From assembly GCA_951406725.2 (NCBI GenBank), contig OX597816.1, positions 127,224,001-127,288,000 of the forward strand: a DNA stretch of 64,000 nucleotides, written 5' to 3'. The DNA comes from Octopus vulgaris. Its lineage: Eukaryota. Shown here one piece after another: positions 14,875 to 42,092 of this stretch. Each line of letters opens with the position of its first letter. Positions within the stretch are counted from its first letter, which is position 1. Position numbers and translations under genes: made by a program. The notes beneath the pieces are model-generated. The model was not told the DNA's origin. It ran no database searches and saw only the letters and a program-made list of their open reading frames with translations.

Positions 14875-15356
14875 GAGGAGACCAGTTTATGTGGTTACAA
14901 TTGGTTTCTCACTCATAAGGGGACCTCTTTAAAATATGGAGGGGGAAAAAACCTTATTTTAAAGGTAAAACCCAAGGTGATTATCTCTCTTTGCCATTGT
15001 TCATCGATCTTGGGCCATGCCACCATCTTGTGGTCACCAAAGCACTGCAAAGGTAAAGGATTGTCTCCCTTCAGCCTCACCTATTGGTTTCCAGCTATAG
15101 TGCCATCCTGTGGATTCCAAAATGCCAGAAGGAATTTCTAAAATGCAAGCATGAGCCCAAAATCTCCCTCCTGGAGTACAAGATGCTCCTGGCATGAATG
15201 AGTCTTTAAGGATCCTTCTGCATTTGGCAATGCATAACTTGCACCATTTTGTCCTGTTGATGTAGGGGCCTGGGTTCTCAAGTATATTCCATGCAATCGA
15301 GTATGAAATTTCTTTGTCTCTTAGTTGCCAGATATGGCTGGCCAGCGAAGTCACGT
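14875..15356 (-). mobile_element. Penelope-like element (PLE) 3' fragment: C-terminal endonuclease region plus terminal repeat
   Basis: ORF 15034-15354 TSLASHIWQLRDKEISYSIAWNILE..PY.N.TKWCKLCI matches the PLE C-terminal signature T.LSkHiW.Lkd....y.i.W.il....pY....krC.LC. Flanked by (TG)n and (TA)n. Confidence 0.8.
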
Positions 15357-15780
15357 ATATATATATATATAAGTTAGTTGTGTTAGAGGTTAAAATAACT
15401 GTCTAAGGGATAGAAGTATCCATTACACTACCAGTATATTACCTATTTTTTACCATGGGCATGCATATGCAAGCATATTATGCTCATAGATTAGTCCTTT
15501 ACTTAGTGTCCCTAAGAATACTCAAGCAAAATGCAGTGATTACAACCACATTCAACTTTTCCCTTTTTCTTCTCTGTGCTCTTCATTATTTATTCTTCAC
15601 TCTGATGAAGCTCCATGTTTCAGATCAGTTTTATTACCAAATATGATAAATATTTTAGCATATCAATGGAAGCAGAAACACCTGTTAGATGGGATGCAGA
15701 CTATTTGTATTGAATTAATGAATAATAATTGATGTAAGTCAATTGTTGTTCATCAATATTTCTCCATTTTCTGTCTTCTT

Positions 15781-33012: not shown

Positions 33013-35013
33013 TGCCTGTTTAGAAAGTAGCTCCAGCTTGTAATATAATTAACAGAGTATATTCATCTTTTTATATCTTTTGAGGCTTACAGAAATTTTC
33101 TCCAAACAAAAAAATGAGAAACATTAATAATATTAACTGTTATATCACATGACTGATAAAAGTAACACTAGTTCTAAAAAATATATAATCATAATATTTT
33201 AGCCATTGGTTTGACAGCAATTATTGATATTCATGTCTGTGGTATATTTCTTACCCCTGTAAAGATAATATTTTTTTCTTTGATCTATGTTTTCTTTTGT
33301 GTGTTTTTCTTATAATTTATTAGCTATTTCTCTTTTTGAAAAAATACTACACTAAGAATTTAAGCTTTATAAAATGCAATGGAATGTTTATGCCCCAATA
33401 GTCCTTTCTATTGCACATTTCAAGTTGAACAGTTTATGCCATAGTGGCAAAGTTTATGGTTGAAGGACCACATCACACAGTGATTTTATCTTATCTTTGT
33501 AAACAGCAACAGAAAAGAAGTGAAATTCTTCTGTAACAGAAAAATAGCAAATATCATTACATCTTGTCTGGTGTCTGTGTGCAGGAATAAAAATATGCAA
33601 CTTATTCCCAGGCTGTTAGAAATGAAAATTTGCCAGTCTCTCCTGTTGACTCTAGAAATATAAGTATTCTGATGAAGTTAACTATGTGTTGACTAAACTG
33701 ACCTTTTCAGCTAAATATTTTTATTACTTTGCTTGAATGTAGATATTTCCCTATTTTAAGTTGGTTTCATATACCACAAAACTTGAGTATTCAGAAATAT
33801 TCATTCATTTAGTTATAAACTATGGACCAAGTAGAAAATATCAGGACTATCAAATGATTCAGTCTGATTGAATGTATGTGCTTTCATTTAATTCACATGA
33901 ACATAGAAATGATTATTTTCTGAAATTCTGGCTGAAAATCAACCCCTGAACCCATCCTATATCACCTGCTTTCTTTATTGCTCCACAATTCCTTCCATTC
34001 ACATCTAATTCTTGCATTGTCTTCATGAACTTAGATCATCAGTCAGAACTGACGACTATCTGGGATAATACTACTTTACCATGCACATTTCTTCATAATT
34101 CAGGAAGATGGTGATTGCATTCACAAAAACAATTTTTTGCTAAATTAGATTTGCCTTTTAGTTGGAGAAGGAAAACAAAAACTGAATAGCAATTTTCAGT
34201 TATTCTCAAAGGAAACATATTTCATGAAGTTAAAAATTTGACAGAAAATGAGTTTTCATATCCAAAGGACTTAGTGCCTAAATAACAACTACATGCATGG
34301 TTTTGTCTTATTAGACCTCATGAGCAAAGCAATGGATACTCTCAATTCTTCATAGTTGTCCCCATCTAATTACAGAAAATTAGCTAGAACACAAGAAAAC
34401 AAGACAAAGTCTTTTCAATAAAGTCAGCTGATTATCTCACTTCATATTCATAAATGATGCATGAAACATTATTTAAAACCCTCTTATTATCTAGTCTTCC
34501 TTATTTTATTAAATTATTCAGCAACACTACTTTTGAGTCTCTTTGCCACTGCATTTATCTAAGCTAATTTATCAATTACATTACCAAAATGCCACTTTTA
34601 TAAAAGAGTTCACATGAATCATTTTTGCTTTATTCCAGAGATTGTTTTGTTGTCTTGTGTTGGTATTTAGTGTTTCAACTAAGCACCATGTAGAATATGT
34701 GGTATGTGAATTGTGTTATTTTGTTTGTTGCAGATTAGAGTTGGTATGTGCTGTGTGAATTGTTGATATGAGGGATGTATTATAGTATTGACAAATGATT
34801 ATATAAGGGTGTTTGCTATGTTATTTTGTTGTAGGGGTGGATGTTAGACTATGTACTGTGTGGTTGTGCTATGCTATCAGATGATAGATTGCACTTTTTT
34901 AGTCACATTAATGCATTTACTGATGATTATATGAAGTATGTGTTGTGTAAATCATTCTGTAGAAATGAAAGTTCCTTAAGTCAGGGGGTGGGGCGTATTT
35001 TTAAAACCGTTTG

Positions 35014-35634
35014 TAAGTCCTGGAGTAAAGTCATTATAAGTTATGGAGTAAAGATTGTTTGTCAACATAACATGGCAGTCCTGGTTTAGGAAGAATGTTG
35101 CTGTAATTTAGTCCCAGGAGACATCGTCTCCAGCTGGCTATATAACATGATGTGTCCTTTTATTTTCAAACAAGAGAATCTAGGACTGCATTATTATGTT
35201 GGCAACAATCTTTACTCCAAAGTACAGTTGCTGAATATCTCTCGTGGTGAGATTTACAAATAGTAATTTTCTAATGTATAGGTCAGTGACTAGCTGTCAC
35301 TTTGAAAACTATATATTTCGAATGGGAATTTGGCAGTGCCACCCCTAGCTGAACAATTATTCTGTGCTGATGAAGGGAAATAACCAAGAAATTGTGATAC
35401 ACAGATATTGTTTTGAGCTTAGTGGGGATGTTAGATTCCCTTGTTTGAAAATATAAGGACACAGATCATGTCGTATAGCCAGCTGGAGACGATTCTCCTG
35501 GAGCTATATTACAGCAACATTCATCCTAAACCAGGACTGCCATGTTATGTTGGCAAACAATCTCCAAAGTACTGTTACTGAATATTTCTCATTGTGAGAT
35601 TTACAAATAGTAATTTTCTAAGTTATAAGTCCTG
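35014..35634 (+). mobile_element. Penelope pLTR / retrozyme-like repeat: ~350-bp partial tandem unit plus inverted arm
   Basis: 35182-35274 is directly repeated at 35533-35621. 35045-35182 is the reverse complement of ~35432-35565. Candidate 9-bp TSD TAAGTCCTG at 35014-35022 and 35626-35634. Contains a hammerhead motif. Confidence 0.75.
35361..35405 (+). ncRNA. Minimal type-I hammerhead ribozyme motif
   Basis: TCTGTG-CTGATGA-A-GGGAAATAACC-AA-GAAA-TTGTG-ATA-CACAGA. Perfect 6-bp stem I and canonical CUGAUGA/GAAA core, with AUA cleavage triplet. Stem II is weak. Confidence 0.7.
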
Positions 35635-35939
35635 ATATGTATGTTTTTTATTTTGTTCTTTAATGTACATAGATTACTAACTGTTATTGGTACTGTTTTT
35701 AATTTCTTATTCCTTGTCCTACTTATTTCCATTTCAATCTCTTTTGATAGTTTCTCAACTTCCTTCATGACAATATTTTATTCAATGTACTTAGATATTC
35801 ATGCTTGTCTTCAATAATTATATTTAGACATTTTCCTTATCTCTTTATTAGTTTAGACCATCACGTTCCAGATTGTTATAACTCGATCACTATCATGTAA
35901 TATGTTTGAAACATGTCAGTCTACCTCAAAGGTTTCATA

Positions 35940-36150
35940 CTGGTTCCAAATTTTGGCACAAGACCAACAAGTTGAGTGTTAGGTCGATTACTTCAACCCT
36001 AATGATCAACTAGTACTTATTTTATTGAACCCGAAAGGACGAGAGGAAAAATTGGCCATGGCGACATTTGAATCTCAGAACATAAAGATGGATGAAATAC
36101 CACTAAGCATTTTTCCAACGTGGTAACAATTCTGTCTGCTCACCACCTTA
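35940..36150 (-). mobile_element. SINE family B
   Basis: Matches 12170-12385. Confidence 0.85.
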
Positions 36151-39449: not shown

Positions 39450-40015
39450 CCAAAAGAAAGGCCAAAATTATGTGATCTGCTACTCTTGGTGGCAGTGATG
39501 GTGGTGATTGTTTCCCTCTATGTAAAGAAGAGTGCTTATATGCACCATGAAACTATATGAGAGGTTCTTCCATGGTAACTATCATAGCATTCTGTATTCT
39601 AACACATCCTTTTTTAAGTGGTGATAAATAGTACCTTTCAGTATTAATCTGCTTCTGTCTCTATTGATTATTTTTTAATAAGACCCTTGGTTATTTGCAA
39701 TACCAGTGTCTGATTAGACCTTGTAATCCTATATACATTGCTGACAGAGAGCATTCACTGCTAATTCCAGCAGTCAGGTGTCCACCATTAACAAGGCCAA
39801 GAAAGGCCAAAATTGCATGTTCTGTTAGCATTGGCAACAGTGACGGTGGTGATTATCTTCCTCTAGCGATGTAAACAAGAGTGCATATATGCACCAGAAA
39901 ACCATTTGAAAGGTTCTCTCATAGTAATTATCACAGTATTCTAACACAACATCCACTTTTAAGTGGTGATAAATATTATCTTCTGGTGTTAATCTGCTTC
40001 TGTCTCCATTAATTA
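39450..40015 (+). repeat. Diverged ~220-bp direct repeat (39450-39670 and 39797-40015)
   Basis: Shared AAGAAAGGCCAAAATT ... GGTGGTGATT ... AAGAGTGC.TATATGCACCA ... TTTTAAGTGGTGATAAATA ... TTAATCTGCTTCTGTCTC. Confidence 0.85.
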
Positions 40016-42092
40016 CTATTTATTTTTATTCATTTCAGTGAATGAGTGACTTTCAAGAGTCCTAAATCATCAAGTTATAGGATGCATAGTATTACTGCAA
40101 TTTAATAGACATATCCTGTATAAGTGATATGGGAAATTTTAATATACAATATATTTCACTTGCAAATATATTGATGCCTCAGTAACATTTCAATGGAAGC
40201 GCATAATGCTTGCAGCTTTATGATATATATAGAAAATAAATTATATTCATATTTTTAATTGATCTTCATTTAATAATCTTGTAGTTATTTAATTGACAAT
40301 CTTACAATTCAAAATGTTTTGCTTTTGTAAGTAATTTCAAATTTTATAATGAAGAGTACAATGTTTGAAGCATTTTGTTTATGATAAAATAGTTTGACAC
40401 TCCATTTGAATTGCAAGGTACATGATATTTATGTACAACTAGGGATTTTTCAGAGATCTTCATGAGGGAAATTTTCAGCATGATTTAATAATACCAAGAT
40501 TTGTCTTCTACCCAATGATTGTGGCTTCAAATTACTTCATCATTCTCTCTTTGAGCACTTCATTAATTTTTACTATAGACCTGTTATTCATCTGGAAATT
40601 TTCACTAAAATTCTTCTTCTTATGCTAATAATTTGTGACATTTAGATACACTGTTAAACATTTATATATGATTAAAAATATCTTCAAGGATTATATAAAT
40701 GTACAGTTTTTTTTTAATGACTTAGTATGAGATGGAAAAAGTGTACCTATGACAGATGATTTTTTCAAGGCTCTTAAGACTGATAGAAGTGGGGGAGCTA
40801 TCCTCAAACCAGAAATGTGATCTGAATGAATATTTCTGAGTATTCTCCACTAAAAGCTCCCAATGACTAGGTGATCATGCTAAAATGGGCCATGGATTGA
40901 GTCTACCACAAAAGAACTCAGAATACAAATAGCCAAAACAAACTAATCACCTTGTCTGATGCTCTAACAATGACACTGGTTCACTACCCTGGAGTGGTAC
41001 TTTGTTTTAGCATTCACAAGTAGATTAAAGACAATCACTCAAAATGTAATCTATTTACATCAAATATCAACACAAGCAGAGTCTACCCATTTCATTCAGT
41101 ACTGAACACTACACACAATACATACATTAAATCATTTGCAATCAACATGTTTGCAATGTCTTTCATTATTATTCAGGTATTATACTCAGTTTCCTGTCCT
41201 TTCAACTCATTTTCCACATGTTCTATCATACTTCTCACAAATACTAATAATTGTGTGAAAGAACTATATGTGATTTAACATGAAATAATGTATATGAAAT
41301 GAAGAATTATCTCAAGATTCACCCTTACTTGTAGCAAGCACTAGAGTAATAATATTCATTCTCCTGGCTAAGTTACCCGACAAATCATGAATTTCTTTAC
41401 AACTACAGCTATTATTTCAGATGTAACTGAAAACATTTTAAAAAAACAATGTGACCCAGACTAATATGTCTTGTCACACATTTAAGTGCAAATATTATTC
41501 AATATTCTAAAACAAAAAATAGCTTAAAGAATAATTGGTTGATTATTTGATTAATCTTTTTTATCAAAATGTTTCTGTGATGAACACTATTAATTAACAC
41601 CTGGTGCTATTCACAAAATAAATTGTTGGCAGCAATAATATTTTGCAGTCATCATCTGGTAATATTTTGGTTTTAAGTCATTGATAAAAGGCATTTTTAT
41701 GGCTAACTTACAAAAATATCCATAATCAAAACTGTACAGTTAGATATTATGCTTGAATCTAAGAAGCCAATGAAAATGGGCAAAGTGAAAGATAATCTTT
41801 CAGTTAAGCATTGATAGATTGTTATGCCTACTCTCAGTATCATCAGGATACCAACAGTGCTATTTTAATCTCCATATATTTCAAAATATGGAATCTTCTG
41901 AATATGGTGTATTAATTTTGATAATTGTCAGTTTAATCAGTTATACTAAATAATGGTAAATTAGTATTAATATATTTTAAAAAATTTTATCTAGTTTCAG
42001 CTCATGAGCTGTGGCCATGCTGGGGCACCGCCATTTACATAAATCATCATATTATTTACAAGAAAACGATATTTTTAATAGAAATTAACTAA

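Follow-up and report, generated by a model that had tools for sequence, protein, structure and literature searches.

The window, that is, the whole stretch of DNA that was analysed, comprises 64,000 nt (G000:C3:127224001-127288000) of a 2.8-Gb genome represented by 227 contigs, and it contains an insertion in which an inverted arm is followed by about 1.25 plus-strand units (35182-35621) of a 353-nt repeat (Table 1). The inverted arm runs from unit position 248 to 39, the plus-strand arm ends at unit position 94, and the 55 nt separating the unit ends 39 and 94 correspond to a Penelope-type tail. An earlier note on this DNA had claimed a period of about 351 nt, an inverted arm and the absence of an open reading frame (ORF), and all three were borne out: 35182-35284 recurs at 35533-35631 (351 nt apart, 84% identity), 35052-35182 matches 35432-35563 at 91% with the arm extending to 35044, and the longest stop-free frame in a trimer of the family consensus has 48 aa on the plus strand and 73 aa on the minus strand. 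The inverted arms form a long hairpin (fold z=-19.5). Both junctions are bridged by contigs of two other organisms and a contig of a third organism reaches the junctions with fewer than 31 letters inside, indicating that the insertion is old and common to them; no empty orthologous site was found among the matches listed. The insertion is very probably one old copy of a dispersed, protein-free hammerhead repeat of 353 nt, i.e. a retrozyme.

Table 1. Features of the hammerhead insertion in the window, and one LINE nested in another copy of the repeat
Feature	Position	Strand	Remark
Left copy, most likely target-site duplication	35009-35020	+	11-12 nt, one mismatch/indel; within the family range of 6-13 nt; ambiguous
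Left junction	35021-35043		Element end of 10 nt, filler of 13 nt resembling the target; local duplication of 23 nt
Inverted, 5'-truncated arm	35044-35186	-	Unit 248-353 plus 1-39; ends at the family short end (~39)
Full monomer	35182-35532	+	351 nt (consensus 353); ~92% identity to consensus
Motif resembling the proximal sequence element of U2 genes	35282-35293	+	Predicted snRNA-type promoter; first base mutated here
TATA-like element	35309-35317	+	~30 nt upstream of predicted start; also in two sister families
Equivalent of unit ~160	35340-35349	+	Predicted transcription start; site of L1/Tx1-like LINE in other copies, empty here
Type I minimal hammerhead	35361-35405	+	Undamaged core, lesions in stem II and in the stem III palindrome; predicted to be cleaved after 35399
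Partial second unit (1-94)	35533-35621	+	Ends at the family long end
Right copy, most likely target-site duplication	35622-35632	+	
L1/Tx1-like LINE in retrozyme repeat	L195:3430-8057	-	

The 9-mer claimed earlier as target-site duplication is present at 35014-35022 and 35626-35634, but the 11-12-nt duplication listed in Table 1, which it overlaps, is the better reading and abuts both family-typical ends. Given the local duplication of 23 nt at the left junction, and a rival 8-mer pair at 35034-35041 and 35623-35630, the target duplication of this copy is ambiguous. About 15 nt of the left junction are missing in one related organism's contig. A very high-copy interspersed repeat, unrelated to the insertion, lies 300 nt downstream (35925-36150). 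At 39450-40030 there is another tandem member of the hammerhead superfamily that has decayed further, with a period of about 345 nt, 77% identity between repeats, an inverted piece and a degenerate core.

The hammerhead of the window copy had been called canonical with a perfect stem I. Stem I (6 bp, strands 35361-35366 and 35400-35405), the core (35367-35373) and the GAAA (35388-35391) are indeed present, but the term canonical is too strong: in stem II 2/3 G-C pairs are left under an A.A mismatch, and the palindrome of stem III is gone, its duplex being calculated at +1.2 kcal/mol as against -10.1 for an intact palindrome. Having lost a pair of stem II as well as the palindrome of stem III, this copy is probably catalytically inactive. 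A scan with Rfam gave no hammerhead match at E<=1, the fold of the 45-nt segment is no better than chance (z=0.03) and the bare hammerhead motif occurs in the window at chance level (7 matches vs 7.6 expected).

A dispersed family of hammerhead repeats

An exact 25-mer across the hammerhead was found in 352 copies in the genome and a control in 0, and the family size, counted in this way, is at least 352. A similarity search of the genome yielded 3758 first-look candidates, 40 of which were scored, and 34 near-complete monomers have an average identity of 94.2% to a 353-nt consensus. The loci analysed numbered 115 (28 picked for their similarity and 87 for carrying the exact 25-mer, with 5 duplicate loci removed); one near-duplicate pair remains in the counts for these 115 loci and was left out of the 64-locus duplication test and of later analyses. 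Head-to-tail arrays, which the earlier note had proposed to look for, do exist: units run head to tail without an ORF, the arm exceeds one unit in 59/115 loci and holds one unit or less in 56/115, and at least two units, with at least two hammerheads, are present in 4/115 loci (L004, for example, has three), the window copy carrying a single hammerhead. Homology along the unit links at least six sister families, in which ORF-free tandem copies have periods of about 345-363 nt. Those seen in TA repeats at L188:440-990 and L081:1-640 have a U3-A8 hammerhead core and a tandem period of 360-363 nt.

The hammerhead reading was to be abandoned, according to the earlier note, if a conserved core or stem II were missing from the family consensus. 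The consensus has the core, a stem I of 6 bp, a stem II of three G-C pairs below an A.G mismatch at its base, and a palindromic stem III, the palindrome being eroded by CpG decay (142 copies). Among 7 family representatives, stem I is kept with a mean of 4.9/5 pairs vs 3.2 across families and stem III is self-complementary in each, the sequences differing; the covariation of stem II alone is modest, its score being reached in 17/500 shuffles. Judged from these alignments, the hammerhead is retained with compensated stems in all sister families, and it is on this family evidence, not on the window copy alone, that the motif is accepted as real. In the first 28 loci, 13/36 hammerheads were intact on all criteria. 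A dimer-type layout with palindromic stem III has been described for Penelope hammerheads (PMC4209133), and in published tests 8/9 predicted Xenopus dimers failed to cleave (bioRxiv 10.64898/2026.07.22.740005). The consensus folded as a circle gave z=-8.7 (60 shuffles).

Insertion ends, predicted promoter and templates

Two back-to-back arms, one of them the inverted 5'-truncated copy expected of Penelope-type insertion, were observed in 89/115 loci. In 65 of these 89 inverted loci a unit end at about 39 is paired with a unit end at about 94, so that two fixed 3' ends give a one-sided tail, and two long ends occurred once. Target duplications of 6-13 nt flank 33/64 paired-end loci, as compared with a mean of 0.57 and a maximum of 3 after shuffling, and 31/64 yielded none; TGT/GTC is enriched 7-16 nt outside the ends, occurring in 32 and 34 of the 64 as against 11 and 16 farther out. 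An inverted 5' copy with a one-sided tail is known for Penelope-like elements (PMC8557442), for which the tail was traced in vitro to two internal starts of reverse transcriptase (RT), with nicking of both strands and AT-rich targets (PMC11167929). A young Neptune-type element of the same genome with a 775-aa ORF shows comparable geometry, as among 8 loci examined there were 6 inverted insertions with both arms seen, and 6/6 had one short end and one end about 28 nt longer; this family inserts in TA repeats and has no sequence in common with the 353-nt unit. The back-to-back shape of many copies makes it likely that the 353-nt family was inserted by a Penelope-type retrotransposon enzyme. The reading put forward in the earlier note, a retrozyme-like, non-autonomous element mobilised by Penelope-like elements (PLEs), is thus supported at the level of the family, by ORF-free tandems and Penelope-type insertion marks.

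In U2 genes of the same genome a promoter motif lies at -57 to -61, and the best match to it in the unit lies 58 nt upstream of the insertion site of a LINE. With a U2 promoter matrix the best site falls 80-90 nt upstream of the hammerhead core in 5/5 families, which are homologous and hence not independent, and the score for the 353-nt family alone is borderline (reached in 24/500 shuffles). An internal snRNA-type promoter that would start RNA near unit 160 is predicted; a snRNA-type Pol II promoter has been reported in newt satellite 2 (PMC2220036). Resemblance between the 3' flank of U2 and unit 55-94 was considered and discarded as not significant (25-117 of 200 shuffles). A U6 copy was seen immediately 3' of retrozyme-like sequence in L361.

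LINE-type inserts at about unit 160 were found in 5/115 loci, with duplications of 13-19 nt where these could be seen, and one nested insert, 4.6 kb long, contains endonuclease-like and RT frames. An L1/Tx1-like LINE and a relative of about 1.7 kb (L195, L191-L194, L230-L289) sit about 20-31 nt upstream of the core in several retrozyme families. A loose hammerhead motif follows 10-40 nt after the 3' ends of the inserts in 26/47 cases, vs 3.1% background. With a profile made from the consensus sequences of three families and a single locus as a fourth reference, non-seed LINE 3' ends fell within the hammerhead superfamily in 19/25 and 6/19 cases, in several families; both shares exceed the 20% of flanks of one type above which target preference has been assigned to LINEs (PMC4494074). 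A younger sibling LINE is mostly found at another target (3/29 ends in the superfamily). The nested LINE has an RT match, relatives carry PF03372, PF00078 and PF13966, and it is a putative member of the Tx1 clade. The 3' ends of related LINEs abut the U2 start in 2/15 loci, and the homing of the LINE to the predicted retrozyme start may be likened to these LINEs at U2 genes; in L368 and L375 the LINE 3' ends lie about 5 nt upstream of the first base of U2 genes. A young LINE with an intact 1148-aa ORF forms tandem arrays of about 5.3 kb at one fixed non-hammerhead target (L319-L347).

Where the arms stop bears on the templates from which they were copied. Among 94 hammerhead-containing arms, 62 continue past the predicted start into the promoter, and since a single-unit linear RNA could not supply these, the arm stops fit a mix of linear templates starting at about 160 and circular or multimeric ones, circle and multimer being indistinguishable. 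Variants are common to both arms of one insertion in 71/824 cases vs 3.8% between insertions (2.3 times), and to tandem units in 51/480 (2.8 times the between-insertion level); the two arms of the window copy have 0/9 variant sites in common. It is conceivable that the repeat is mobilised by a Penelope-type enzyme but copied from linear RNA only (primary transcripts and read-through multimers), with no circle and with the hammerhead as a passenger. For such a route speaks that the other 32/94 arms stop within the 22 nt of unit 160-181, near the predicted start, that the longest arm seen has about 3 units, that insertion by Poseidon in vitro did not need hammerhead cleavage (PMC11167929), and that 3 unstranded RNA runs gave no sign of a dominant monomer. 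However, arrays derived from linear multimers cannot outgrow their source, all sister families keep the hammerhead with compensated stems, and a second cluster of arm stops exists at unit 72-91, for which reason the cluster at 160-181 may represent microhomology joins. On balance, copying from linear RNA only is considered unlikely, and templates that include self-cleaved, possibly circular RNA are preferred.

RNA reads came from a related organism (3 runs of one study, about 6% read, unstranded) and were mapped to one monomer, which received 1928, 1608 and 1489 reads per run. The depth per strand was about 360-630 over unit 1-36 and most of 300-350 and about 14-37 over 110-145, that is, high over the 3' part and low over hammerhead and promoter, and no pile of read ends was detected at the predicted cut site in these 3 unstranded runs at about 6% read. 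Head-to-tail reads numbered 427, 254 and 290 per run, but tandem DNA gives such reads likewise, and the library type is unsuited to circles. The pattern is what truncated copies would produce by passive read-through, and it is hardly informative on circles. The commonest differences of RNA reads on L004:2320-2669 were A>G and T>C; inverted-arm hairpins could be edited, divergent copies explain the differences equally well, and without matched DNA the A>G excess was not accepted as evidence of RNA editing.

Search for a Penelope-type partner

Linkage to ORFs of PLEs, which the earlier note had named as the mark of an ordinary Penelope long terminal repeat (pLTR), was observed in 0/115 loci for the families queried (Neptune-type ORFs and one endonuclease only), and with its units running head to tail without an ORF the repeat is not simply a pLTR; in 1/115 loci a Penelope RT fragment lies in the flank, about 500 nt beyond the insertion. 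Neither blastn nor profile search revealed a homologous terminal repeat in the PLE loci L061-L120, L181-L199 and L408-L415, a partial and mostly Neptune-type set. Several candidate partners were rejected for the same lack of a homologous terminal repeat, namely a family that has only the endonuclease and a hammerhead of its own, the best 30 GIY-YIG loci, and the two Neptune families (781 and 775 aa). A 15-nt match in L111 is antisense within an ORF and was attributed to chance, and sequence shared upstream of unit 160, considered as the 3' end of a partner, proved to consist of nested LINE-type inserts. In contrast to the 353-nt family, the Neptune families observed insert in TA microsatellites.

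Some observations on Penelope-like sequences were made in passing. The window contains at 15034-15402, on the minus strand, a fragment resembling a Penelope-type endonuclease of a very abundant family (10044 candidates); loci related to it have their own hammerhead downstream, with no RT seen beside them, and homologue searches from this fragment retrieved no full-length element. Two young Neptune-type families with intact ORFs of 781 and 775 aa (L181-L184, L378-L415) both end in TA microsatellites, and the 781-aa family has an upstream ORF of about 479 aa and a U3-A8 variant hammerhead. In L223:884-1300 a fragment of Penelope RT runs straight into a 5'-truncated unit of a sister family, and the RT sequence is not resumed beyond that unit; the junction reflects either chance nesting or a switch of template from one RNA to the other, element and retrozyme.

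These results bear on the idea that the copies are truncated solo or tandem pLTRs of an unsampled autonomous PLE, with no independent small RNA element. The insertion geometry equals that of autonomous elements (PMC8557442), 56/115 loci hold one unit or less, and the ORF search covered the families named above, all of which would suit such an origin. Against it, what follows past position 94 is the next unit and not an ORF, more than one unit is present in 59/115 loci with up to 3 units, sequences shared upstream are nested LINE-type inserts and common repeats only, and sister families likewise have ORF-free tandem periods of about 345-363 nt, so that this origin appears very improbable. Least probable is a SINE/MITE-like repeat whose tandem and inverted forms arose by later DNA rearrangement (unequal crossover, fold-back): local tandem growth from terminal sequence is discussed in bioRxiv 10.64898/2026.07.22.740005 and a small local duplication exists at the left junction of the window copy, but target duplications enclose the entire two-arm structure and the strict 39/94 pairing (65 vs 1 with two long ends) is unexpected from random rearrangement and largely refutes it.

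Proposed cycle and comparison with known systems

With a small, ORF-free RNA element inserted by a Penelope-type enzyme as the preferred reading, a cycle of four steps may be proposed. The unit-internal snRNA-type promoter would start RNA near unit 160; where a copy carries two hammerheads, their palindromic stems III would pair and the RNA would cut itself, after unit 218 as predicted, to a monomer that is possibly circularised. A Penelope-type RT/GIY-YIG protein would then nick AT-rich DNA on both strands, with about 10 nt between the nicks, and begin copying on each strand from a different internal site (39 or 94); the two cDNAs would join at their meeting point to give the inverted pair. 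The promoter, which is lost from a single transcript, would be regained if a circle or a multimer is copied, and a copy such as that in the window, with one damaged hammerhead, would be a dead end. Because two RT start sites and a predicted promoter are named, the cycle is directly testable. As a wider and tentative reading, which may well not hold, the superfamily of at least six ribozyme repeats could be a minimal replicon in which a snRNA-type promoter is kept by copying of self-cut circles, insertion is by twin Penelope priming, and LINE parasites home to the start.

Mobilisation of animal retrozymes by PLEs had until now been proposed from co-occurrence and sequence similarity. To this the 353-nt family adds marks at the level of the insertion, i.e. 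fixed ends that occur in pairs, arms in inverted orientation and, because the family lands outside microsatellites, readable target duplications of about 10 nt. Among the papers listed in searches of the open literature, none was found on this family, on twin-arm geometry in retrozymes or on the LINE target; the supplements of PMC7229834, PMC4209133 and the bioRxiv preprint may list related cephalopod elements.

The family is a member of a kind already known, the animal retrozymes. Metazoan non-LTR retrozymes have been described in coral, Mytilus (350-390 bp) and axolotl (330/350 bp) (PMC7229834; bioRxiv 10.64898/2026.07.22.740005), and the family shares with them, as far as these sources describe them, a non-coding unit of 150-450 bp (353 nt here, with frames of 48/73 aa), a type I hammerhead (in the consensus and the sister families, damaged in the window copy), tandem copies, GC below 50%, target duplications of more than 4 bp without LTR architecture (6-13 nt in 33/64 loci), a predicted circle that is strongly self-paired, and co-occurring PLEs. 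A mismatch at the base of stem II is also reported for one axolotl retrozyme family. In contrast to the retrozymes as presented in those sources, the 353-nt family consists mostly of dispersed insertions of 1-3 units and not of long arrays, it has the inverted two-arm structure with two fixed ends, no terminal-repeat match in a partner was found for it among the PLE loci sampled, and its cleavage and circles are predicted. The partial tandems, the inverted 5'-truncated copy, the tail at one end, the palindromic stem III and the AT-rich targets are those of pLTRs of EN+ PLEs (PMC8557442, PMC11167929, PMC4209133); unlike EN+ PLEs in these accounts, the unit has no ORF, let alone the RT plus GIY-YIG ORF between terminal repeats of an autonomous element, and the tail is 55 nt vs their 30-40. 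Schistosoma minimal hammerheads are described with a stem II of 7-8 bp, whereas that of the family has 3 bp.

Chlamys elements such as MRC1 are likewise non-coding and Penelope-dependent with head-to-tail insertions, but they are green algal and resemble their autonomous partner at the 3' end, according to the account in PMC8557442, a resemblance with no counterpart found here among the PLE loci sampled. Newt satellite 2 is described as another hammerhead repeat that has a Pol II promoter of the snRNA type within it; in the present family such a promoter is predicted from sequence only. The nested LINE, finally, resembles Tx1L in Tx1D, Keno in U2 and Tx1-Mar as APE-RT LINEs residing at one position of a multicopy element, and the target-specific Tx1-clade LINEs also in its 13-19-nt duplication; it differs from the Tx1-clade targets listed in these sources in that its target is a hammerhead repeat at the predicted start of transcription (PMC4494074, PMC4640811).
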